From: Candidatus Spongiisociaceae bacterium
GTDB lineage: Bacteria; Actinomycetota; Acidimicrobiia; Spongiisociales; Spongiisociaceae
DNA length: 64,000 bases
Direction of reading: 5' to 3'
Assembly: GCA_965219685.1 (NCBI GenBank)
Contig: CBDCOH010000002.1
Location: 64,001-128,000 of the forward strand
Part shown: positions 44,695 to 56,366 of the stretch, in pieces
How the letters are laid out: the number at the start of each line of letters is the position of its first letter
Position numbering within the stretch: the first letter of the stretch is position 1
Notes under the pieces: generated by a model
The model's database searches: none
Seen by the model: the letters and a program-made list of their open reading frames with translations, nothing else
Told to the model about the DNA's origin: nothing
Program-made: the position numbers and the translations under genes

Positions 44695-47600
44695 TCACGC
44701 CGGCACAAGTGGTTTCTTGCGCCCGTAGCGCTCACGGATGAAGGTCTCGACATCGGCGGACGGAACTTCTCGCGTTGAGTTGTTGCGGCGTTGGTAGAGC
44801 GTTTTGGCGCCCTCCTTGTTCTTGACCCAGATGGGCCGGGAACTGACGGGCACGTCGATCCGGCAGACGTCGTGGTTGTTGACTCGGTCGATGCGGATGT
44901 CAAGGCGGTTGGCGCCGGCGTGGCCGAGGCTGTTCTCGAAGAGGGTGTCGAGCCAGTTGACGTAGCCGTCGGCGTTCGGAGGTTTGACTTGGGCGTAGTC
45001 GTCGTCGAGGCCGACCGGTTCGCCACGATCGGTGACGCCGATCAGCAGGGTCCCGCCCCGGTCGTTGAGCAATCCGGCGACTGTCTTGACGACAACCTGT
45101 TCCATCCTCTTGTCCCTGCGCCGCTCCCGCACGTTCCACCGGGCGGTCTGTTTGTACTCGACTGTTCTGGACTCGTCGTCGACAAGGAGTTCTCGGGTGG
45201 GGCAAGCCCAAGTGGCGTTCGCTCCGAAGAGCGTCTCGATGAGTTGGGCGAACAGTTCTGGGTCGGTGCGGACTTGGGCTAGGAGGTCATCGTTGACCTC
45301 CTCAGGAGTGGTCGGCACTGTCGCCACCGCCGTACCCGTGCCGGTGTCATCATCGGGTGTGTCGTAGACGCTTCCGCCATTGTCGAAATAGCTGGCGTAG
45401 ATGTGGTCGAAGATAGCGTCGACCTTTTGGTCGAAGAGTCCGGGGCCGTAGACGTCGGGCAGTTCATCGTCGAGGACGGTGCCGACTGCGACGCGAACCG
45501 CGGAGCGAGTTTGCTGGCGGCGTTTCCAGTCGAGGACGAGTTTCTCCTCGACATGGTCCAACAGCTTCTTCGCAGCGCCCTTGACTTTCTTTGCCTCGGC
45601 CTCGGTCAGCTGCGGCTCCGGCTTGGTGAGCAGGTCGAAGACGGCCAGTTCTGCCTCGGTCGCGTCTTCTCGAACGGCGCGCTGCTCTTCGTTGGTCAAC
45701 TCGTCGTTGATGGCCCTGAGCCTACGGAGGAACTCCTCGAGGTTGTGAGTGCCGGCGTTGTAGTCCTCGATGAGGCGTCGGAACCTCTCGGCCAGGTCCA
45801 TCCGGGTCGGGTTCTTTCGCACCGCCTCAACAAGCCGTTTCTTGATGTTCTTCTCGATGGCCAGCGCGGCTGTTCGCTTGTTGGCGGCGAAGTTCAAGGA
45901 GAGTTGCTCGAAGTCGATCTGGTTGAGATCGATCAACGGATCAGTCCCACCGGTGCTGCGAATGATGTACTCCTTCGCCCCGACCGACCGATCGAGCAGT
46001 TCCGACACCGAGTCCATCACCCCGCTGATGTCGGGCGAATCGGTCGCCGATGCGATCTTCGATGCGATCGAGCGAATTACAGCCACCCGGTGGGTGACCG
46101 CCATCGCCTCAGGATCAGGTAGCAGCGCCTTGAAGGTCTTTCGGACCCTGCGGGCAAGCGACACGTACCGGCGGCGGGTCTGTTCGTCAATCAGTAGCGC
46201 TTCCACGGCGGCCTTCTGCAAGGCGACGAACTCGAACCCCTGCGCTGCCTCCATGTCGTCGAGGTCGATGTCGTTGGCATCGCACAAGTCGGCTACGTCG
46301 CCCAGCGCCGCACTCAACCCTGCGATCAGGTCGTCCTTGGGCCGGATCGGCAGGTCGCGGCCCGACGCGGTGCGGTCAGCACCGTAGATGGCGAGCGCCT
46401 TCTCCAGGTTCCGGAACACACCGACGTAGTCGACGATCAGACCGTTGTCCTTGTCCGGGAACACCCGGTTGGCCCGGGCGATGGTCTGCATCAATGTGTG
46501 GTTCCGCATCGGCTTGTCGAGATACACCGTTGACGTCGACGGGGAGTCGAACCCCGTGAGCCACATCGCACACACGAACACCAACCGGAACGGATCGTCA
46601 GGGTCCTTGAACTTGGAGTTGAGGTCCTCGGTGAGCATCCGCTTGCGATGCTTGGCGATGTCGAGACCGGCAGCGGCCATCTCTGCCACTTCGTTCTGGG
46701 CCTGCGACACCACCACGGCCATGTCGGTGCTGCGCATGAACTCGATAAGGGACTCCAGGTGCGGTCTCTCCATCTCGGGGGTGTTCACCAACCGACTTTC
46801 GAGGTCGGCCAGATAGCGGACCCACTCGGCCTCCACCAGGTCGTACATCCGCACGGCCGTAGCCTTGTCGATGGCCACATACATGGCCTTTCCCCGGAAT
46901 CCCCGATTGACGAAGTGGTGGACCAGATCCTCGGCGATTTCGGCGAGCCGCCGGGGTCGCGTGATCAGCTGGTACTGCTGGGAGAATCGGCGCGCGACTG
47001 CCTTTTCCTGGGCATCGTCCAAAGCGGCCTCTTCGAGCAGGTCTTCGAGTTCCTCGTCGAAGTCTTCGTTGGTGAGCTGCAACTCTGGGATGCGGTTCTC
47101 GTAGTAGAGCGGGACGGTGGCCCCGTCAGCGATGGAGTCCCGGAAGTTGTAGATCGACACGTAGTCGCCGAACACCTGCCGGGTTCTCTCCTCCTCCCCG
47201 GCGATCAGCGGTGTGCCGGTGAAACCCAGAAACGAGGCGTTCGGCAACGAGAGTCGCATGTTGGCGGCCAGCGTGTCGTACTGTGATCGGTGGGCCTCGT
47301 CGGTGACAACCACGATGTCATCCCGTCGGGACAGGACCGGCATCGGTTGGCCCTTCTCGGGTGGGATGAACTTGTGGATCAGCGTGAACACGTACCGGTG
47401 GTCCTGGCCCAGCAACTCCCGTAGGTGGGCTGAACTCTCGGCGTGAACCTGCTGGCCGGTGGTTATCACCCCAGAGTCGACAAATTCCTCGTAGAGCTGC
47501 TCGTCGAGTTCCTTCCGATCGGTCACCAGCACGAACGTCCAATTGCCGGGCTCCTTGCGCAGCACCTTCTGGGTGAACCACAACATCGACAGTGACTTGC

Positions 47601-48507
47601 CCGACCCCTGGGTATGCCAGAACACCCCGAGCCGACCCTCACGCTCCTTCAGTTCCCGCAGAGCCTCAAGCGCATTGTTCACGCCAAGGAACTGGTGGTT
47701 CTTGGCGAGCACCTTCACCAGACCGCCCGGCCGTTCCGTGAAGGCAACGAAGTTCTCGACCAAATCCAGCAGTCGACGCCGCTCGCAGGTGCCGCGCAAG
47801 GCGGTCTCCAGCGACACCACGCCCTGCTCGCCCTCGGAGTTGATCCTCTTCCAATCGGTGAAATGCCCCCATGGAGCGAACGTCGAGCCAACGCGTGTGT
47901 CGGCTCCGTTCGAGAGCAAAACGAACGCGTTGAACCAGAACAGGTGCGGGACGGTGTCGCGGTAGTCGCGGAGGTTGCCCTCGTACGCGTCCCGGACGTT
48001 CTTGTGTGACACTTTCAGTTCGACCAAGACCAGCGGGATGCCGTTGACGAACAACACCACATCGGCCCGCCGCTTGTACATGTCGCCAACGATCCAAAAC
48101 TGCGAAACCGCCAACCAGTCGTTCGCGTCAGCGTTGTTCCAGTCCATGAACCGCACCGTGACCGTCTGGCTCTTGCCGTCAGCTCCGATCGTTTCGATCT
48201 TCGCGCCATCGCGAAGTAGTACATCGACCTCGCGGTTTGCCCGAACCCGGTCCATCGCCGACCGATCCTCGACCAACCGCTCCACCGCCGCATCCAGTGC
48301 CGCCTCAGGACGACCAGGATTCAGAACACGAAGCGACTCTCGGAGCCGGTAAACGAGCACGGGCTCGGACCGTGAGTCGCGACCTAGCGTGCCCAGCGGC
48401 CCGAGGCTCTCCTCGAACCCCAACGCCACTTTCCAACCCAACCGTGACAACAGACGGAGTGCTGGCTGCTCAACCAGTTCGTCCTCGGTCAGACCAACTG
48501 GACTCAC
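44695..48507 (-). CDS. hsdR: Type I restriction subunit R with C-terminal Schlafen/AlbA_2 domain
   Basis: FVNGIPL..ELK, HTQGSGKS, DEAHRSQY, TGTP, QTIARANR; tail ES.TVEYK...KTVAG.LN..GGTLLIGV.D. Confidence 0.92.
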   Translation of the reverse strand: MSPVGLTEDELVEQPALRLLSRLGWKVALGFEESLGPLGTLGRDSRSEPVLVYRLRESLRVLNPGRPEAALDAAVERLVEDRSAMDRVRANREVDVLLRDGAKIETIGADGKSQTVTVRFMDWNNADANDWLAVSQFWIVGDMYKRRADVVLFVNGIPLVLVELKVSHKNVRDAYEGNLRDYRDTVPHLFWFNAFVLLSNGADTRVGSTFAPWGHFTDWKRINSEGEQGVVSLETALRGTCERRRLLDLVENFVAFTERPGGLVKVLAKNHQFLGVNNALEALRELKEREGRLGVFWHTQGSGKSLSMLWFTQKVLRKEPGNWTFVLVTDRKELDEQLYEEFVDSGVITTGQQVHAESSAHLRELLGQDHRYVFTLIHKFIPPEKGQPMPVLSRRDDIVVVTDEAHRSQYDTLAANMRLSLPNASFLGFTGTPLIAGEEERTRQVFGDYVSIYNFRDSIADGATVPLYYENRIPELQLTNEDFDEELEDLLEEAALDDAQEKAVARRFSQQYQLITRPRRLAEIAEDLVHHFVNRGFRGKAMYVAIDKATAVRMYDLVEAEWVRYLADLESRLVNTPEMERPHLESLIEFMRSTDMAVVVSQAQNEVAEMAAAGLDIAKHRKRMLTEDLNSKFKDPDDPFRLVFVCAMWLTGFDSPSTSTVYLDKPMRNHTLMQTIARANRVFPDKDNGLIVDYVGVFRNLEKALAIYGADRTASGRDLPIRPKDDLIAGLSAALGDVADLCDANDIDLDDMEAAQGFEFVALQKAAVEALLIDEQTRRRYVSLARRVRKTFKALLPDPEAMAVTHRVAVIRSIASKIASATDSPDISGVMDSVSELLDRSVGAKEYIIRSTGGTDPLIDLNQIDFEQLSLNFAANKRTAALAIEKNIKKRLVEAVRKNPTRMDLAERFRRLIEDYNAGTHNLEEFLRRLRAINDELTNEEQRAVREDATEAELAVFDLLTKPEPQLTEAEAKKVKGAAKKLLDHVEEKLVLDWKRRQQTRSAVRVAVGTVLDDELPDVYGPGLFDQKVDAIFDHIYASYFDNGGSVYDTPDDDTGTGTAVATVPTTPEEVNDDLLAQVRTDPELFAQLIETLFGANATWACPTRELLVDDESRTVEYKQTARWNVRERRRDKRMEQVVVKTVAGLLNDRGGTLLIGVTDRGEPVGLDDDYAQVKPPNADGYVNWLDTLFENSLGHAGANRLDIRIDRVNNHDVCRIDVPVSSRPIWVKNKEGAKTLYQRRNNSTREVPSADVETFIRERYGRKKPLVPA

Positions 48508-49763
48508 ACCGCCTCCACCACCAGATCTATATCAAGCTCCGATACATCCAACTCCCCCGACACAAGACGAGGCAGCAGGAGGTTCCGCGCACCCCGCAGC
48601 ACCCGATTCTGTGCTGCGAGGGTCTTTCTCAGAGAATCAATTGGCCCCACAATGTCGCTGAATGCCTGTTCAACATCATGGGTGGGGTGGGGAATGCAAT
48701 AGTTCATGAGGACTCCGGTGTTTGCCCTCGGCATCTTTGTCCCGTTGGAGGTTGCGGTTGCAACACCAACGAATTCGTCACTTGACGCAACCGCTAAGGC
48801 TCGACACCGGAAGGATTCCTCTTTGGGTCTAAAGACAATCGTATCCGTCGAAGAACACCCCGAGATAGGTGCATCGACCACCTTATGAAAGTAGGGCCGA
48901 ATTTTGCCGAAGAGAATATCCCCCTCGGAGAAGATCTTTCGTCGACTTCCAACCTGCGAGGCCTCTTCCCACTCATAGAGTGTCGTGGAACGCCTTGGCA
49001 GGTGCTGAAGTCCCACTACCGGTGTTCCTTCGGATATATTGTCCGGAGACACCGTCTGTTTGATCTCCGACACGAGATCTGAGAACTTACCTGCTTTCCA
49101 ACCATCGGGGATCGGGCCAATGTCGGAGTCGATCAACTCGCTATCTTCGTGGCCCGGGAATCGGAGGTGTACGAACCACTCCCTATACAACAACCGAGCC
49201 ATCTCCTCCAGAATCTCGATCCGGCGCCGATTGTTGTCGATCAAGCCGTCGTACATCCCCAGTTCACGTGCCATCCTCCGTTGGTCTTCAAGAGCGGGCA
49301 ATGGGATCTCCACTAGAGACAGTATCTCTTGGTTAAGTGATGCCATCGTCGCTCCGAACGAGCAGTAGTTATGCATCCAGCGTCGATGCCATTCAGTACG
49401 AAGTGTGAACGATACGAACGTTGGATCAATAACGTTCTTATCCAGTCGCAAACGGATACAGTCGGACCCTTGGATCCAGCCTGTTTCTCGTGACGTAATG
49501 AGAGCGTGACGATCTACAGCTCCCTTTCGACCGAAAACTATGTCACCCTCCTGAAGCCGGTGTCGTGCTAGGCGCTCGACATGTTCTGCTGGGAGAAACT
49601 CCAATCCATGAGTCCGGATCTCACCGTAACCAACGTTACGAACGTTGATTACGGGTGTGCCATCATGCGTATACTGATCCGCCGATAGCTGCGTCCCAAA
49701 CGGACCCGTTGTTAGCTCGGCAACCCCTCGGGATTGGAGATCCCCGATCCGAACTGTCTTCAT
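48504..49763 (-). CDS. hsdS: Type I RM specificity subunit
   Basis: Two TRDs, IPLP.LEDQ, IPDGW, RNLLLPRLVSGEL; lower GC in the TRDs. Confidence 0.92.
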   Translation of the reverse strand: MKTVRIGDLQSRGVAELTTGPFGTQLSADQYTHDGTPVINVRNVGYGEIRTHGLEFLPAEHVERLARHRLQEGDIVFGRKGAVDRHALITSRETGWIQGSDCIRLRLDKNVIDPTFVSFTLRTEWHRRWMHNYCSFGATMASLNQEILSLVEIPLPALEDQRRMARELGMYDGLIDNNRRRIEILEEMARLLYREWFVHLRFPGHEDSELIDSDIGPIPDGWKAGKFSDLVSEIKQTVSPDNISEGTPVVGLQHLPRRSTTLYEWEEASQVGSRRKIFSEGDILFGKIRPYFHKVVDAPISGCSSTDTIVFRPKEESFRCRALAVASSDEFVGVATATSNGTKMPRANTGVLMNYCIPHPTHDVEQAFSDIVGPIDSLRKTLAAQNRVLRGARNLLLPRLVSGELDVSELDIDLVVEAV

Positions 49764-51298
49764 TCGACGGACTGCATCTGGCCCCGGATCCTGTCGGACA
49801 GGAGAGAGGCTTCGTCAGTGAGTTTCGCAAATGTGCCAGCAAGTTGTGTCATCGCTACGACAAATTCGCCATGGTCGACAAGGGACCTGACTACATCTAC
49901 ATATCGGCCTGGATTGAGACTCCATCCCTGCACTTCGAGCTCTTCGATACTTGTGACAGCACACAGGCCAGGCACATCTGTATAAGTGTCGGCGGGAAAT
50001 CTCTTGCTGAGCAACTCCTCACTTCCTGCCTCGAATTCGGGCTTCTCGCCGCGCCACAACCGTACGATGTTGGCGAGGAACTCAATTTGCTGTGGTGTCC
50101 AGTCACGATGGGCTCGGTCGATCTGGTTGTAGATCTCACGAGCGTCGATAAAGAGCACTTGGTCAGCCCGGTCAGTGCGTTTCTTGCCTCGGTCGAGGAA
50201 CCACAGCGTCACGGGCAACGTGACGGTGTAAAACATGTTCGTGGTGGCAGCCAAGATCACATCAACGGTCCGGTCTTCAATGAGCTTACGGCGGATGTGC
50301 AGTTCACTTCCTCTGGCGTCGGATGCCGAGTTCGCCATGACGAATCCGGCACGGCCGCTCTTGTTGAGCGCGGAGTAGAATGTCTGGATCCAGATGTAGT
50401 TGCCGTTGTCAGCCTTCGGCAGTCCGAACGGGAACCGGGAATCGTCCTCGAGCTTGGTCCTATCAATCTTTTTGACATTGAACGGCGGGTTGGCCATGAC
50501 GAAGTCGAACTTGCCGCCTGAATCATGGAGATCCTCGTAGTAGGTGTTGCCTTCTCGAATGTCCCCGCCGAGGCCATGGACGGATAGGTTCATCTTTGCG
50601 AGCCGGACGGTGTCGCCGGTCTTCTCCTGACCGTAGATCGAGAGTTCCTGGCTAGGGTCGTGACGGTGACGTTCGACGAAGTGGGCGGACTGTACGAACA
50701 TCCCGCCCGACCCGCAAGCGGGGTCATAGATCTTTCCGCGGAATGGTTCGAGGATCTCGACAATGAGCCGGACGATCGAAGTCGGTGTGAAGAACTCGCC
50801 GCCCTGCCGACCCTCCGACAGGGCGAACTTGCCGAGGAAATACTCGTAGATCAGCCCGAACCCGTCACCTTCGATCACCTCCGGCAGTCCCCGCAGTAGC
50901 CGCAGGAGTTCTCCGAGGATGTTGTCGGGAACACGGGAGTAGTCCCCTGGCAGAACACCCTTGAGGTCGGGGTTGTGCTTCTCGATGCCGGTCATGGCAC
51001 GGTTGATGGACTTCCCGATGTCGGCGCCCTCGGGAAGGTTGAGGAGCGTCTCGAACCGCGATTCGTCCGGCAGATACAGGGCACCAATGGCCTTGTAGTC
51101 ATCGGGCCCGGTCGGACGCCGATCAGATCCCGGGCCCACTACCTCGTCGGCCTGCGCGAATCGATCGTCGGCGTACCGAAGAAAGATGAGCCCCAACACC
51201 GGCGAGGCATACTCCGATGCCTTCAGCCCCGAGTTGGCTCGTAACTGGTCCGCCGTCTCCCAGAGCGTGCTCTGTAGTTCACCGAGGTCCGTCGCCAC
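49760..51298 (-). CDS. hsdM: Type I RM methyltransferase subunit
   Basis: LW..AD.LR, GEFFTP, YDPACGSGG, NPPF; likely GTG start at 51298. Confidence 0.95.
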   Translation of the reverse strand: MATDLGELQSTLWETADQLRANSGLKASEYASPVLGLIFLRYADDRFAQADEVVGPGSDRRPTGPDDYKAIGALYLPDESRFETLLNLPEGADIGKSINRAMTGIEKHNPDLKGVLPGDYSRVPDNILGELLRLLRGLPEVIEGDGFGLIYEYFLGKFALSEGRQGGEFFTPTSIVRLIVEILEPFRGKIYDPACGSGGMFVQSAHFVERHRHDPSQELSIYGQEKTGDTVRLAKMNLSVHGLGGDIREGNTYYEDLHDSGGKFDFVMANPPFNVKKIDRTKLEDDSRFPFGLPKADNGNYIWIQTFYSALNKSGRAGFVMANSASDARGSELHIRRKLIEDRTVDVILAATTNMFYTVTLPVTLWFLDRGKKRTDRADQVLFIDAREIYNQIDRAHRDWTPQQIEFLANIVRLWRGEKPEFEAGSEELLSKRFPADTYTDVPGLCAVTSIEELEVQGWSLNPGRYVDVVRSLVDHGEFVVAMTQLAGTFAKLTDEASLLSDRIRGQMQSVE

Positions 51299-51884
51299 CC
51301 CTGCTCTTCCTGTTGCCCCTCCATTGTCTCGCAAATGTAGGTGTCGACCAAAGGCGACCGATCCACTTCTTGAACCGGCGGAAGCCGAAGCGGTTGGCTA
51401 TCTCGTTCTGTAGGTTCGTGATCGCCTGCTTACTTGTCTGGCCGGGGCCCCATCCTTTCAGGTTCATCTCTGAGGGTGTAGTGATCGGGGCGTTCTCCCA
51501 TGCCTGGCTGATGTAGGGGCCGACGTCGCGGTTGATGATGGCTCGGGTTGTGGCGTAGGTGTTTGCGAGGTCAGGATGCTCGGTGACGATCCATGCTTGA
51601 TGGTAGGCAAGGCGTTCTTGGAGGTCGTGGCCGCGGTTAGCGAGAGCGGTGAGGGTGGATGGGTTGTTGTCGGCGCGACGGCGGACGCGGTAGGGGAACT
51701 CGGTCCATGCGACGAGGGTTTGGACTGCTTCCGCGTAGCGTTCGCGGCGACGGTTGGTGGCTTCGTTTAGGCGGGCGTAGGCCATGGTTGCAATCGAGCC
51801 GATGATGGCACCGACAGGTGCCGCGAGGATCGCCCATAGCTGGCTGTCGGTTGAAGAAGCTGCGATGGTGGTCACGGTGAACAT
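51279..51884 (-). CDS. Single-TM helical protein (candidate CD-NTase-system effector)
   Basis: N-terminal TM (LWAILAAPVGAIIGSIATMAY) then a charged helical domain; TGATG coupled to the E2-like gene. Confidence 0.7.
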   Translation of the reverse strand: MFTVTTIAASSTDSQLWAILAAPVGAIIGSIATMAYARLNEATNRRRERYAEAVQTLVAWTEFPYRVRRRADNNPSTLTALANRGHDLQERLAYHQAWIVTEHPDLANTYATTRAIINRDVGPYISQAWENAPITTPSEMNLKGWGPGQTSKQAITNLQNEIANRFGFRRFKKWIGRLWSTPTFARQWRGNRKSRGGDGPR

Positions 51885-52435
51885 CAGGCTACCCGGAGGC
51901 TAGGGGTTCGGATGGGATGCGGTCGACCGTCGGGCCGGTGCCCGTGGGGGGCGTCCTCGACCGGCCAGGAGCCGTGACGGCGCCAGTATTCTTCACACCA
52001 CAGGTGACGTTGCACTATGCGTAGGTAGGCATCTATCCCGTCGGACCAGTGCCATCGTAGGTAGCCGGGATCTCGAGGGTATTCGACGCACAGTGACCCG
52101 AGGAGTTCCTCCCACGGTATCGGTGTTGACTGTGACCATTCCAGAACTTGCCTGATGGAGAGGCGCGGGTAGCGGTGCAGCCAGGTACGTTCATCGCTCC
52201 TCGCGGGGATAGCGTGTAAGTCGCCGTTGGATCGCACGGCGATACGGACGCGCTCGGCGGGGTAGCCGGGCAGTCCCCGGGGCGGGGGAGGCTCGAACTG
52301 CACGTCGAAGATGGTCAATCGCTTGTTGTGTCTCACGAGTCTGATGTCCATACCGTCGACAACGTCTGACTGGTTGAGCCACCGGATACAGGCTTGAGGG
52401 TTCCTCCGGACGTGGTTCAGCCCGCCTGGTTTCAT
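51884..52435 (-). CDS. Prokaryotic E2 (UBC-like) protein
   Basis: HRY...GSLC.EYP.D...W...E.W...G.WP..DAPH pattern with a putative catalytic Cys; ATGA coupled to the CD-NTase. Confidence 0.7.
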   Translation of the reverse strand: MKPGGLNHVRRNPQACIRWLNQSDVVDGMDIRLVRHNKRLTIFDVQFEPPPPRGLPGYPAERVRIAVRSNGDLHAIPARSDERTWLHRYPRLSIRQVLEWSQSTPIPWEELLGSLCVEYPRDPGYLRWHWSDGIDAYLRIVQRHLWCEEYWRRHGSWPVEDAPHGHRPDGRPHPIRTPSLRVA

Positions 52436-53394
52436 TTTGGTCTCCACGCCCGGGTGGTCGGAGTCCGGCGCGCGGTGGTAGCCACACCGGCGTAGAGACC
52501 TTGGAGGAAGCCCTGCTCGTCAGCCGGCGGACGGGGGAAAGGCTCACCGAATATGTCGGCCCAGATGTGAGCTGCTTCTGTCTCCGCTCCCGACGCCGCG
52601 AGCTGTTGCGCTGTGCTTGCTTGGGTGGCGAGACGCTGCATCCCCGCCCTGGCGGTGGCTCTGTCTGCGGCGGACAGACGATCGGATATCCAGTCCCAGC
52701 CGGTGGGATCGGTGTAACGGCCACCGAGGAGTTCGGCACCCTTCGCCAGCGCTGCCGCAACAGCGTCGGCATGCTCCTGCCGGGATGCAATCGCGTGGTA
52801 TGTGAAAGCCTCGACATGAAGGCCGGGGAGCACATCGGCAAGTTTGGCATGGCCCACGGCCTGTTTGACCATGCGCACCTGACGTACGAACCGGCCGTCA
52901 CATACTTGGTTCCGGGCGGCGATCGTATCGATCAGGATGTAGGTGTTGGACAACTCCCAAGCATCGTCTTCGGTGTCGGCGATGTAGATCCATCCAGAGC
53001 CGTCCTCAGGGTTGAATGCCGGCACGGCGTCGAAAGTAAACCCCTCGGCGGGGAGAGTGATCGCAAGGGCATGCTTCTTCACCTCGAAGCTGGCACCGGG
53101 GAGGTGGGGTGCGAGGGCAGCTTTGATAAGCGACATGGCTCGTCGTGAGCCGCCGGGTTTCTTGAGAGAATCGGTCAGGTCGTCGACCAACTCGACTACC
53201 TTGTCGATGTCTTTGAGTTTGGGACCCAGCATTGTGTGGCGGGCGAAGCTGCCCTGCAGGCGGGTCCGTTTAGCGACCCCGGCCTTGACGAGCAGGTCCC
53301 CGAGGCGATTGTGCGTCTCCTGGGCTCTGAGGCGTTCTGCCGGGTCCAGTTTCAGGTTGTTGTCGAGAGCGTCGAAGCGCTTCTTCAGGTTCAT
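52432..53394 (-). CDS. CD-NTase (cGAS/DncV-like, SMODS) nucleotidyltransferase
   Basis: LQGSFARHT...KDID, FDAVPAF, R.VRMVK, G.HVE, DPTG; ATG 53394 after AAGGA. Confidence 0.85.
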   Translation of the reverse strand: MNLKKRFDALDNNLKLDPAERLRAQETHNRLGDLLVKAGVAKRTRLQGSFARHTMLGPKLKDIDKVVELVDDLTDSLKKPGGSRRAMSLIKAALAPHLPGASFEVKKHALAITLPAEGFTFDAVPAFNPEDGSGWIYIADTEDDAWELSNTYILIDTIAARNQVCDGRFVRQVRMVKQAVGHAKLADVLPGLHVEAFTYHAIASRQEHADAVAAALAKGAELLGGRYTDPTGWDWISDRLSAADRATARAGMQRLATQASTAQQLAASGAETEAAHIWADIFGEPFPRPPADEQGFLQGLYAGVATTARRTPTTRAWRPK

Positions 53395-53533
53395 CGGCTT
53401 TTCCTTTCGTAGGTCGTGCGGTAGTTGGCGTGATCGGGTAGTCCCTGGGGATCGAGGTGGCTGCCCGTCGAGGGTCTCAACCCCGGACGGGACCCGGTGC
53501 ATTCACCGGGACTCCCGTCGGGATGTCGAGTGG

Positions 53534-53650
53534 TTACCTCTTCTTCTTGGGTGACTTCACCCTCTCGGACACGGTGGTCCGAGGGTGTCGCCTCGCCGTA
53601 GAGCGCTTGACGAAACGGCCTGTAACGGCCGATCGGTGTCGTTTTGCCAT
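53534..53650 (-). CDS. 38-aa basic peptide (RSAVTGRFV...HPRTTVSE)
   Basis: ATG preceded by GGAGGTGAAAG; translates to MAKRHRSAVTGRFVKRSTARRHPRTTVSERVKSPKKKR; below the ORF-track cutoff. Confidence 0.75.
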   Translation of the reverse strand: MAKRHRSAVTGRFVKRSTARRHPRTTVSERVKSPKKKR

Positions 53651-54046
53651 CTTTCACCTCCTTCCATTTGAGTCAAGGTGCCCCGAGTCCAAGAGCACAC
53701 CGGCTGCTACCTGAGTATCTGGGATGCGCTGGCGGTGTCTCGTGGAGCCTTGAGGCTCGCTCTGTGGATGAGTCGAATGACTCGGCTTTGTCCCAGTGTC
53801 CGAGAATCTGCTAGTGCTTGACAATCCTTCAATCCCCCTAACTACCTCAAGCCTCTGCCTAGTCCCCACCAACATCCGCCGCTCGCTAGAGGCCACGGCA
53901 GCAGGAGCTTGAAGTCTGGAGTCTGATTACTTGAATTATACACGACTACGCCTAGATTCGTGTTTCACAGGGCTGGAATCGTTGCACATGTGGCAACGAC
54001 TGAATATGCTCCGATTACCGCCGACCGGGGAGGGGAGGGCACCCGC

Positions 54047-55120
54047 GTGGGCCAGAGTTCTGACGAACGCCGTGGCGACTTCGCACCACGGCGGCTCCGG
54101 ATGGCGCGCGACTTTGCCGATGTCTCACAGCTAACCCTCAGCCAAGCCGCCGGTCTATCCGTTGCATCGATCAGCCTCTACGAGCAGGGCGGGACAATCC
54201 CCAGCGACAAGACCCTGGCCTTGTTCGCCGACCACCTCGACATCGAGCCCGAATTCTTCTACTCGTCAACCACCAGCGCTGACACGCCAGCCTTCTTCCG
54301 AAGCCTCCGAACCACCAAAGCCGTCGACCGGCGACGCGCCCGACACAAGATCGAAATCGTCTACGAGTTAGTCAGGGCGCTGGAGACCGAAGTCAGGTTC
54401 CCCGACCCCGACGTACCCGAGCATCCCGTAGCCGCAAGCCAGGATCGAGGACCCGAGGAAGCAGCGCGGCGGACTAGGCACTGTTGGAACGTACCCCCAG
54501 GACCAGTCGACAACATGGTCCGATCCGTGGAACGCCACGGTGTCGTAGTCGCACAACCCGAAGAAGAAAACACCCACATCGACGCCTACTCGGTCAAGTT
54601 CCCGGACCGTCCGATCATCGTCATGTCCCTTGCCAAAGGGAAACACGACCGGTGCCGCTTCGATGTCGCCCACGAACTAGGCCACCTTGTAATGCACGAC
54701 CCCACCCAGGCCACAACCCGACCCGTGGAACAACAAGCCCACAAGTTCGCAGCCGAATTCCTAATGCCCGCGCGAGACATCCGACTCGAACTCGAGATGG
54801 CAGATACGCTCGGCGCGCTTCTCCGTCTCAAACAGAAGTGGCGCGTGTCCCTCGCAGCACTCATCCGGCGCCGCTACGACCTCGACATCATCGACAAGAC
54901 CCGTTACACGAAGTACATGAAAGCCATATCGGCAAGGGGGTGGCGCCGCAACGAACCAGTCGACCTCGGCCCACCCGAACAACCCATACTCCTCAGAAAG
55001 GCAATGCAACTAGCAGGCCTCAACGAATACGACCTCTCCCAACGCACTGGGCTTACGATCAGCCTCATACGGAACGTTCTCAACACCAGCATCGATACCA
55101 GACCGCAAGTACATATCTAG
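54047..55120 (+). CDS. XRE HTH + ImmA/IrrE Zn-metallopeptidase regulator
   Basis: RLRMAR...SQ..LS....S..SISLYEQG..P HTH; RFDVAHELGH (HExxH), EQQA..FAAEFLMP. Start uncertain. Confidence 0.9.
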   Translation: MGQSSDERRGDFAPRRLRMARDFADVSQLTLSQAAGLSVASISLYEQGGTIPSDKTLALFADHLDIEPEFFYSSTTSADTPAFFRSLRTTKAVDRRRARHKIEIVYELVRALETEVRFPDPDVPEHPVAASQDRGPEEAARRTRHCWNVPPGPVDNMVRSVERHGVVVAQPEEENTHIDAYSVKFPDRPIIVMSLAKGKHDRCRFDVAHELGHLVMHDPTQATTRPVEQQAHKFAAEFLMPARDIRLELEMADTLGALLRLKQKWRVSLAALIRRRYDLDIIDKTRYTKYMKAISARGWRRNEPVDLGPPEQPILLRKAMQLAGLNEYDLSQRTGLTISLIRNVLNTSIDTRPQVHI

Positions 55121-55454: not shown

Positions 55455-56366
55455 CTAAACATCGAACGTGCCCACTGTTAGCCACTCATCACCAGAATCA
55501 TCCACGGAGAGCCCAACAGTCTGAAGCCTGCCTACTATCCGCTTCCTCGCCTGTGGGGAGTCATTCAAATAGACCAAATGGCGACCAGCGATATCCGATA
55601 GGATCTTCGTTCCAGGTGTTGCAACTATAAGAGTCCTGCTGGGAGCAAGTGCCATGGCCATACCAGCCTCATAAATGACGTTTTGTCGTGGCTGTCCGGC
55701 CTCAACCAGTTCAGGGTCTTCAGCATCTTCAGCTAGGGCTGGATCCAGTCTAACGAAATCGTCTGGCGTCGCGAGAACCACGATACCATGCGCCTCCTCA
55801 AGCCCCGCCAAGAGTACATCACCTATATACGGATTAGGTTCACCAGTCAACCTGACAGCCTGTTCCCACTCAATCACCCTTAGGTCAAGAGATCTTAGGA
55901 AACTCTTCATGGCATCTGTTATGGTCCTATTCCTCCCATGTACTAGGAATACTGACCGTCCATCACCGGGGCCAGTCGGAACTGACACACGAGCTACTCC
56001 TACACCCTTCGTACTGGACCGTGTGTCTGAGTCCCAGCCGGGAGGACCTTTAATGTATCTGTCAGTTACGTCGGTTGCCTGACCGACTGCTCTCCACAAG
56101 TATGTAGGACCTCCAAGGCTAAGCACACCAGACGATCGGTCCTTGGCCTTCAGGCCCGGAATATAGTCTCGGGCAGATCTATCGGACGTTGATACCTCGA
56201 TACGCCCAAGTTTGGCAAGCTTGATTGTTCGCCCATTGACTATGATAGGCCTGCCCAGACGGTAGGGCTCCAGAAACTGTTCCTGTAGTTGGTCCAGGCT
56301 CATATCAATCTTGACTTCGCCGTGACGACTGCCAGACACTGAGAGTCTCACATGGTAAAGCTCCAT
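55455..56366 (-). CDS. TIR-like (Cap12/Pycsar-type TIR) nucleotide-binding protein
   Basis: VFLVHGRN, IVVLATPDD, PRQNVIYEAG, SDIAG; lower GC. Confidence 0.85.
   Translation of the reverse strand: MELYHVRLSVSGSRHGEVKIDMSLDQLQEQFLEPYRLGRPIIVNGRTIKLAKLGRIEVSTSDRSARDYIPGLKAKDRSSGVLSLGGPTYLWRAVGQATDVTDRYIKGPPGWDSDTRSSTKGVGVARVSVPTGPGDGRSVFLVHGRNRTITDAMKSFLRSLDLRVIEWEQAVRLTGEPNPYIGDVLLAGLEEAHGIVVLATPDDFVRLDPALAEDAEDPELVEAGQPRQNVIYEAGMAMALAPSRTLIVATPGTKILSDIAGRHLVYLNDSPQARKRIVGRLQTVGLSVDDSGDEWLTVGTFDV

Follow-up and report, generated by a model that had tools for sequence, protein, structure and literature searches.

Organization of the locus

The DNA considered here (the window) is a stretch of 64,000 nucleotides (nt) from contig CBDCOH010000002.1 of a Candidatus Spongiisociaceae bacterium, and the element in question is a gene of 38 codons, whose product is called here the mini-protein, situated between a CBASS operon and a divergently oriented regulator. 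The mini-protein gene and the genes for the CD-NTase (the CBASS cyclase), an E2-like accessory protein and an effector are read from the minus strand from 53650 onwards; the regulator, in which an XRE-type helix-turn-helix (HTH) domain is fused to an M78 peptidase of the IrrE/ImmA/CapP kind, is read from the plus strand from 54047 (Table 1). The CapH/CapP switch, CBASS and the RosmerTA toxin–antitoxin systems are already known; what seems to be new is the family to which the mini-protein belongs.

A first-pass annotation of this DNA had described an open reading frame (ORF) of 38 amino acids (aa), a GGAGGTG ribosome-binding site, a GC-rich hairpin without a T-run and a CD-NTase gene further downstream, all of which are present, the translation being exact. 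The peptide had also been called basic, in agreement with its 15 Lys/Arg residues and its single acidic residue, a Glu, which give a net charge of about +14.

The regulator ORF is open from a GTG at 53960, although the version on record is the 357-aa form. Its two domains are recognised by Pfam (HTH_3, 4.5e-10; Peptidase_M78, 7.9e-16) and, among the PADLOC models, it matches those of RmrA (2.4e-78 to 8.1e-33), capP (3.1e-16) and capH (8.2e-4). The cargo of the window is a short type II CBASS composed of cyclase, E2 and a single-transmembrane (1TM) effector. The CD-NTase is also matched by NCBIfam CBASS_cyclase_b at 5.3e-31, which is under that model's cut-off, and the E2-like gene has no match in Pfam.

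Table 1. Features of the mini-protein locus and its surroundings in the window
Feature	Position	Strand	Remarks
Mini-protein gene	53534..53650	-	38 codons, stop included in span; ATG at 53650, TAA at 53536-53534; product MAKRHRSAVTGRFVKRSTARRHPRTTVSERVKSPKKKR; single-repeat family member
Shine-Dalgarno sequence GGAGGTG	53655..53661	-	4-nt spacer to ATG
GC-rich imperfect stem-loop	about 53481..53522	-	starts 11 nt past the mini-protein stop; no T-run
TATAAT in GTGTATAATTC, candidate -10 element of the mini-protein transcript	53935..53940	-	about 285 nt upstream of ATG
CD-NTase (CBASS cyclase) gene, first cargo gene	52432..53394	-	Pfam SMODS 1.7e-10; PADLOC cyclase 2.4e-29
E2-like CBASS accessory gene	51884..52447	-	overlaps end of cyclase gene; PADLOC E2 1.5e-11
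Single-transmembrane CBASS effector gene	51279..51884	-	PADLOC effector 1TM 1.4e-23
Fused XRE-HTH and M78 (IrrE/ImmA/CapP-like) peptidase gene	54047..55120	+	357 aa; divergent
TIR-domain gene	55455-56366	-	303 aa; CAP12/Pycsar-type TIR domain (Pfam 3.6e-23; PADLOC PDC-S35 about 1e-13)
Three ORFs directly behind the CBASS effector gene	44695-51334	-	524, 419 and 1270 aa

A conserved family of mini-proteins

When 1.84 billion protein cluster representatives were searched in full with HMMER, 220 of them came up at E ≤ 1e-3, including 13 at E ≤ 1e-10, which is more than chance. The family core can be written as R-S-A-[IV]-T-G-R-F-V-x7-[RK]-H-P-x-T-T-V-x-E. When 151 sequences were scanned with a regular expression, the core was present once in 69 and twice in tandem in 72, the pattern being missed in the remaining 10. 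Single-repeat members are 31–60 aa long and usually end in Lys/Arg residues, as the protein of the window does, the composition of this tail being kept.

The coding nature of the gene was evaluated with 35 dereplicated loci. Over 24 core codons, pairs of loci differ on average by 0.24, 0.20 and 0.61 per site at the first, second and third codon position, respectively. Among 14280 codon pairs, 6465 differ synonymously and 3644 nonsynonymously, and residues of the core are held while four to six synonymous codons are used for them. Since the first ten residues served as the pattern of the locus search, part of their invariance is built in; this does not apply to the synonymous spread or to the P, T and T that are invariant later in the sequence. 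Codon evidence thus indicates that the amino acid sequence is under strong purifying selection, and the 38-aa ORF is a real protein-coding gene of a widely conserved, unnamed family.

The exact peptide of the window is absent from a collection of 15 billion proteins that does contain the neighbouring regulator; therefore, the peptide was missed here by gene calling. The first-pass label "unannotated" is correct in this sense but not for the relatives, some of which are annotated in RefSeq as "hypothetical protein", for instance on Streptomyces rimosus pSRP1. The Atlas neighbours of the peptide are also clusters named "hypothetical protein". No family of Pfam, NCBIfam, PADLOC or PHROGs matched the peptide at E ≤ 0.1, a search of its own genome found no paralogue, and a tblastn search of a phage collection gave no match at E ≤ 0.01. 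The best match in BFVD, an uncharacterised phage protein of 44 aa that is 54% identical over 26 columns, is itself a family member. A sequence profile search of the PDB returned nothing below E 0.6; a segment of ribosomal protein S16 (..RNAATGRFIEK) appeared at E 1.2, which is not significant. In the literature searched, supplementary tables aside, no description of the family was found, and it goes unmentioned in the parts covered of Lau et al. (10.1101/2022.04.27.489752), PMC11601596, PMC13373217, PMC10440598 and the preprint of Millman et al.

Linkage to HTH-M78 regulators

Loci were collected by a pattern scan of one genome per species. The 32-row alignment of the family held no sufficiently conserved stretch for this search and a closer alignment of 11 rows was used instead, giving 147 confirmed places from which 80 loci were kept; locus counts refer to the window and 79 other loci in which the peptide could be recognised. 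Neighbouring ORFs were called crudely and 339 representatives were scanned against Pfam (all 300 of batches one and two and 39 of the 45 in batch three; the other six are proteins of the window that were scanned separately, except the hsdM-like one). Profiles for HTH, M78, SMODS, ThiF and Multi_ubiq, made from Pfam-verified neighbours, were run on the six-frame ORFs of all loci.

Most of the 80 loci come from Actinomycetota, but the family also occurs in Planctomycetia, Desulfobacterales, Ignavibacteriota, Thermoanaerobaculia, Verrucomicrobia, Trueperaceae and Binatia. An XRE-type HTH and an M78 peptidase are encoded just upstream of the mini-protein gene in 57 of the 80 loci, as a fused protein in 17 and as two proteins in 40. 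Dereplication at 85% nucleotide identity over the peptide region left 41 clusters (35 single-repeat and six two-repeat). HTH and M78 lie within 1.8 kb in 21 of the 35 single-repeat clusters, are missing from 13 and could not be assessed in one at a contig end; in the two-repeat clusters they are found in one of six. The first pass had suggested that micro-proteins of the type RSA.TGRF...P.TT..E recur beside HTH-IrrE regulators, and these counts confirm it. The regulator pair is usually divergent from the mini-protein gene; the co-directional order HTH, M78, peptide is seen in at least some members of four clusters. Sampling across the phylum found the family in 19 of 401 genomes, or 17 of 399 if the unpublished G029 and G371 are set aside, and its distribution is patchy; the family is regarded as horizontally mobile.

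Some members occur in other surroundings. In L027 (3835-5108), from a genome of 35% GC, the mini-protein gene follows, in the same direction, a gene for an HTH-Panacea (SocA-like) antitoxin and an ORF of 114 aa without Pfam matches; the regulator partner there is of a different kind. A HicB-like reading of the N-terminus of P0125 was not confirmed by Pfam. Two-repeat forms are found on plasmids and integrative elements that lack any HTH-M78 gene. For instance, in pMAB23 of Mycobacteroides abscessus (L102, 962-1402) the tandem motif constitutes the C-terminal half of a 146-aa hypothetical protein, and no HTH-M78 gene lies near it. In L102 and 24 other plasmid records the two-repeat protein adjoins a regulator annotated as Fis-family; these include 23-kb mycobacterial mercury-resistance plasmids.

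Cargo and boundary of the cassette

The genes behind the mini-protein gene vary. Among the 21 clusters linked to HTH and M78, SMODS (type II CBASS) is present in five, Multi_ubiq with ThiF in three and ThiF only in two, and none of these genes in 11. At L021, L035 and L045 and on S. rimosus pSRP1 the next gene is convergent, and HTH, M78 and peptide make up a stand-alone unit.

A close comparison is offered by a peptide 92% identical to that of the window in another genus of the same family (G022; loci L002 and L028). The window and L028 share 86% DNA identity from the 5' end of the regulator gene across the whole intergenic region and the peptide gene to the core of the hairpin, and this similarity breaks down about 60–100 nt past the stop codon. 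The 456 nt available that follow the mini-protein gene in L028 show no similarity to the cyclase and begin with an unrelated ORF without Pfam matches. A multiubiquitin-like identity of the ORF after the peptide in L002 and L028 was confirmed neither by Pfam nor by our own profile. The constant feature is the order regulator, mini-protein gene, stem-loop and cargo. The mini-protein is linked to the regulator and not to the cyclase, and the stem-loop marks the edge of the regulator–peptide cassette.

A cluster of 22 loci (L044, L051-L053, L056, L057 and 16 others) shares at least 85% DNA identity across many actinobacterial genera, among them Kribbella, Microbacterium, Knoellia, Brooklawnia, Leucobacter and Blastococcus. 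Its members carry an HTH/M78 pair, the peptide and a CBASS of the composition SMODS-ThiF-(JAB-TIR-SAVED), and their identity therefore indicates a recent horizontal spread of the whole cassette.

The CBASS of the window also has neighbours of possible defensive function. The TIR-domain gene, which converges on the HTH-M78 gene, adds a second candidate for defence to the island. The three ORFs directly behind the CBASS effector gene resemble hsdM, hsdS and hsdR of type I restriction–modification systems, in that order and judged by eye alone; the hsdR-like one seems, also by eye, to have a long C-terminal extension.

The promoter region

The intergenic regions of eight loci (from Gordonia, Kribbella, Microbacterium, Blastococcus, Mycobacterium, Cryobacterium and two Acidimicrobiaceae) could be aligned. 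All eight contain an invariant TAGnAT box (GTGTTAGAATTG) located 37–45 nt upstream of the mini-protein ATG, preceded by TGT and followed by GGAGG, and in all of them about 95–100 nt separate the HTH start from that ATG. A GGAGGTG or GGAGG box is placed 5' of the mini-protein gene at other loci too. The sequence GTGTATAATTC, which is common to the window (53940-53935) and L028, resembles the TAGnAT box, and its TATAAT could be the -10 element of the mini-protein transcript. A simple sigma-70 scan gave no full promoter match in this region of the window.

Short inverted repeats are conserved in the divergent intergenic region (95–100 nt) of L047, L044, L051, L079 and L083. One of them, TGTGTCACA, adjoins the HTH start, and the TAGnAT box lies within another, GTGTT-N8-AACAC; the HTH repressor may use them as operators, which would overlap the mini-protein promoter. 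In three loci of Acidimicrobiia type (L021:4740-4961, L024:4764-4958 and L045:4751-4945) a second conserved mini-ORF of about 64 aa lies between the HTH and mini-protein genes. Its consensus, ..KLK.[FY]LGN.NTLEVHDT..E...C.LDEIK..HR.WY..L.EAK.D..YDNC.WC.G.STR, which is also found in the N-terminal part of P0117, has no Pfam match and may contain a Cys/His metal site. The window lacks this mini-ORF and has, in the equivalent space, a non-coding leader of about 285 nt. An 80-aa ORF in the 5' region of the window (53896-53654) is taken as non-coding: the alignment with L028 has indels there, and the ORF has neither Pfam matches nor similarity to the companion ORF of L016.

The stem-loop after the stop codon

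The spacer between the mini-protein stop codon and the cyclase gene folds with -55.5 kcal/mol (z -2.57), and only two of 200 dinucleotide shuffles folded as well. For the first 80 nt past the stop codon the z value is -2.74 against 100 such shuffles, the best local hairpin having -27.8 kcal/mol. L028 has a long hairpin at the equivalent place (-30.5 kcal/mol), whose outer arms have changed and still pair. The hairpin is real and structurally conserved.

Across the family, z is below -2 in 23 of 73 distinct downstream sequences and, against dinucleotide shuffles, in 13 of 34 dereplicated cluster representatives (8 of the 21 that have M78 and 5 of the 13 that lack it). The primary sequences of the stem-loops of different loci are unrelated. 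Those of the CBASS cluster are weaker (about -20 kcal/mol), and a T-run follows some others (the L072 group and L091). The strongest stem-loops (L021, L031, L035, L045, L086 and L091) are found where the mini-protein gene ends its transcription unit and, because of this, the hairpin of the window is most likely a terminator or attenuator belonging to the mini-protein gene itself and retained before the cargo. The fold of the spacer contained no alternative antiterminator pairing, and Rfam gave no match at E ≤ 1 between 53300 and 54150, a segment that includes the long leader.

Predicted fold

An AlphaFold2 model of the 38-mer, made with the 32-row alignment, has a predicted local distance difference test score (pLDDT) of 88.6. 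Its elements are a strand (residues 2-7), a turn, a second strand (13-14), a helix (16-21), a third strand (26-31) and a looser tail. In the AlphaFold model of a two-repeat member (pLDDT 77.9) the same beta-beta-alpha-beta arrangement appears twice. The mini-protein is therefore predicted to be a single beta-beta-alpha-beta unit of about 30 residues plus a Lys/Arg tail.

Neither Foldseek nor VIA found a clear match among solved folds, for the 38-mer or for the two-repeat model. The best Foldseek hit, the beta-beta-alpha core of the nuclease Sda1, has E 0.67 and probability 0.97, with a root-mean-square deviation of 0.6-0.7 over 26 residues; VIA Z values do not exceed 2.7, that of the AFV1p06 zinc finger being 2.6. 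Like zinc fingers, the unit of about 30 residues can occur in tandem. However, it lacks the metal-binding or catalytic set of Cys, His and Asn of beta-beta-alpha fingers (the His-Me finger nuclease core and C2H2-like fingers), it has a third strand after the helix, and the scores are below significance. It contains no Cys, and therefore no metal site of the beta-beta-alpha finger kind; its only His residues are His5 and His22, of which only His22 is nearly invariant.

Comparison with known systems

The closest parallel is the CapH/CapP switch. CapH represses CBASS, and CapP cleaves CapH upon DNA damage; capH and capP are located upstream of, and opposite to, operons of CBASS, DISARM, DUF2188/DUF3892, 6a and 6e types, and fused HTH-M78 forms have been reported for systems linked to DISARM (Lau et al., bioRxiv 10.1101/2022.04.27.489752). 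The active site of CapP is opened by single-stranded DNA bound in a groove, and the protein has an autoinhibitory loop (10.64898/2026.05.16.725639). CapH/CapP also adjoins 168 of 544 Bub operons (PMC11601596). The regulator of the window likewise has both domains and lies upstream of a CBASS operon and opposite to it, and loci of the mini-protein family share with CapH/CapP the cargo types CBASS, 6a (E2-E1-JAB) and 6e/Bub (multiubiquitin plus E1); DdrO/IrrE and ImmR/ImmA are relatives of the same switch. There are, however, two differences. CapH and CapP are separate proteins, whereas the window has one fused protein (40 of the 57 regulators linked to the peptide are nevertheless split), and family loci contain, between regulator and cargo, a gene for a mini-protein of 31-60 aa and a stem-loop. 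In the parts covered of its description, supplementary tables aside, CapH/CapP is a two-protein module and no such small gene is mentioned (10.1101/2022.04.27.489752).

Small proteins are not foreign to these operons. DUF2188 and DUF3892 proteins occur in HTH-metallopeptidase operons according to Lau et al. (10.1101/2022.04.27.489752), who cite Burroughs and Aravind 2020, and they resemble the mini-protein in being small and in lying under CapH/CapP-like pairs. However, the mini-protein has no sequence match to either of them, and both co-occur with it instead of replacing it. A DUF2188 ORF directly precedes the mini-protein gene in L038 (4743-4920), and a DUF3892 ORF directly follows it in L069 (5289-5633).

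In phages and in integrative and conjugative elements, small DNA-binding proteins of the Cro/Xis type lie opposite ImmR/cI-type repressors. The mini-protein is comparable to them in that its small, basic product comes first in the unit divergent from an HTH repressor, the removal of which would be driven by a dedicated M78 peptidase. It differs in having neither an HTH nor a winged-helix fold: its beta-beta-alpha-beta unit is much smaller and its DNA binding conjectural, and no integrase or excision function lies nearby in the window.

A proposed third component of the switch

We propose that the mini-protein is a third part of the repressor–peptidase switch, made from its own transcription unit, binding nucleic acid and having a feedback role, and we put the chance of this being correct at about even. 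The mini-protein gene, with its -10 box, strong ribosome-binding site and stem-loop, would be a small unit in the promoter-proximal slot next to the HTH-M78 gene, behind which exchangeable immune cargo would be placed. In unstressed cells the HTH protein would repress the divergent promoter. DNA damage or phage infection would activate the peptidase, as it does on the precedent of CapP and IrrE; the repressor would be cleaved and the mini-protein would be the first and most strongly made product. The hairpin would stop or attenuate most transcripts, so that the toxic CBASS genes would be reached by read-through on strong induction only. The mini-protein would bind nucleic acid, most likely as a dimer since covalent two-repeat versions exist, and would feed back on the switch or act on damaged or phage DNA. 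By analogy, it would fill the Cro/Xis-type slot opposite an ImmR/ImmA-type repressor. The reality of the gene, its family, its predicted fold, its linkage to HTH and M78, the cassette boundary and the recurrence of the stem-loop are shown by the analysis; control by the HTH-M78 protein, transcript termination at the hairpin, binding of nucleic acid and feedback are inferred. Binding of nucleic acid is plausible in view of charge, size, repeat architecture and genomic position; a binding dimer, in particular, is suggested by the charge, the tandem-capable unit of about 30 residues and the occurrence on plasmids and integrative elements.

Several observations weigh against this proposal. With regard to expression, the mini-protein gene is so far known from sequence and prediction alone. 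The candidate -10 element of the window lies about 285 nt from the ATG, in contrast to 37–45 nt elsewhere. A simple scan detected neither terminators nor promoters in the region, and the hairpin is devoid of a U-tract; the existence of terminators without a U-tract in high-GC Actinobacteria is debated. Since no clear fold match was found, the case for DNA binding is the one just given, from charge, size, repeat architecture and genomic position. Linkage to the regulator is also incomplete: of the 34 single-repeat clusters that could be assessed, 13 lack a neighbouring M78 gene. Seen from the regulator, only one of 80 loci of homologues of the fused HTH-M78 protein (30-44% identical to that of the window) contains a family member, in its two-repeat form; the mini-protein is therefore optional, restricted to certain lineages, and no general partner of these regulators. 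Finally, within one 85% cluster the same peptide–hairpin–ThiF unit is combined with fused divergent regulators in five loci and with split co-directional ones in three, and the peptide can therefore travel with the cargo too.

Alternative explanations

The mini-protein might instead be the payload, a basic toxin of small size or a factor of growth arrest that the HTH-M78 protein would keep in check and that would work like a RosmerTA toxin or a small inhibitor induced by damage, CBASS being merely inserted behind it. RosmerTA is the relevant precedent: a single HTH-protease antitoxin is paired with many unrelated toxins, some of them small and of no known family (PMC10440598), and the best PADLOC match of the window regulator is precisely RmrA (2.4e-78), its HTH and zinc-peptidase antitoxin. 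At L021, L035, L045 and pSRP1 the peptide is the sole gene in the slot controlled by HTH and M78, so the three-gene unit must be selectable by itself, and the member of L027 is preceded by a 114-aa ORF and the gene of an HTH-Panacea antitoxin. However, the arrangement is not that of RosmerTA. Of 73 loci with homologues of the fused HTH-M78 protein, 57 have an upstream ORF of 200-400 aa in the same direction, the two genes overlapping by 4 nt in 23, whereas in the window the HTH-M78 gene has no co-directional neighbour, having the divergent peptide gene upstream and the convergent TIR-domain gene downstream. Instead of an overlapping partner of that size, the mini-protein is hydrophilic, has neither a membrane segment nor an enzyme domain, and is matched by no model of PADLOC, Pfam, NCBIfam or PHROGs; its two-repeat relatives live on plasmids and integrative elements without an HTH-M78 gene. 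A toxin thus seems rather unlikely.

It is improbable, too, that the mini-protein acts on the peptidase, as a cofactor, a decoy substrate or an inhibitor that would tune cleavage of the HTH protein. Its tight linkage to M78 and HTH in both divergent and co-directional orders would suit such a role, and a basic peptide could interfere with, or mimic, the elements that control CapP, namely the groove for single-stranded DNA and the autoinhibitory loop (10.64898/2026.05.16.725639). There is no indication of contact, however. A prediction of the complex between the HTH-M78 protein and the mini-protein gave no answer (score 0.00) and speaks neither for nor against binding. Most fused HTH-M78 relatives do their work without the peptide, as the single occurrence in 80 loci implies, and the CapH/CapP of Escherichia coli is described, in the parts covered, as a module of two proteins (10.1101/2022.04.27.489752).

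Cargo genes for ubiquitin-like conjugation raise another alternative, in which the Lys-rich tail would be a dedicated acceptor for the E2/Cap2 of the cargo or for the ubiquitin-like proteins of 6a, 6e and Bub operons. SMODS with ThiF, Multi_ubiq with ThiF or ThiF (E1) only are the cargo of 10 of the 21 linked clusters, although one of these 10, that of the window itself, has SMODS and an E2-like gene and no ThiF. The Lys/Arg composition of the tail is kept across single-repeat members, and Lau et al. state that the conjugation target of the CD-NTase is unknown (10.1101/2022.04.27.489752). In its full form, to which we allow a slender chance, the mini-protein would be the missing acceptor: the CD-NTase or ubiquitin-like protein would be loaded on the tail, the regulator would provide a burst of supply at the very time the operon is turned on, and the folded head would anchor the conjugate on nucleic acid. 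Nevertheless, the other 11 linked clusters lack these cargo genes, some having no cargo at all, and co-occurrence can be indirect, since CapH/CapP itself stands beside 168 of 544 Bub operons (PMC11601596). An acceptor role is accordingly judged very unlikely.

The first pass had called the ORF a leader peptide heading the CD-NTase operon. A cis-acting leader, of which only the translation would matter, coupling ribosome position to the hairpin and so attenuating the cyclase, is the least probable of all: a short ORF with a strong ribosome-binding site does stop at 53534, 11 nt before a strong hairpin (from 53522) that precedes the cyclase gene, and a ribosome halted on that stop would mask some of the 5' arm, but the residues are constrained by strong purifying selection and form a confidently predicted fold, tandem-repeat proteins, plasmid copies and a member in a phage protein set exist, the spacer shows no antiterminator pairing and no Rfam match, the cargo is varied or, at stand-alone genes with a convergent neighbour, there is no co-directional gene to attenuate, and a close relative joins the same regulator–peptide–hairpin cassette to different DNA. 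The toxin, acceptor and leader-peptide explanations are thus less likely than that of a nucleic-acid-binding component of the switch.

Significance

Gene callers tend to miss the mini-protein genes of this family, and CapH/CapP-type pairs, which have been described as two-protein switches for CBASS, Bub and further abortive-infection operons that respond to DNA damage, may in these lineages have an overlooked third component. In many Actinomycetota and some further phyla the mini-protein gene would be the first of such units to be transcribed, and a terminator-like element may shield the toxic cargo behind it from the regulated promoter. The family itself is a candidate for a new minimal nucleic-acid-binding unit of about 30 residues, used singly or in tandem.

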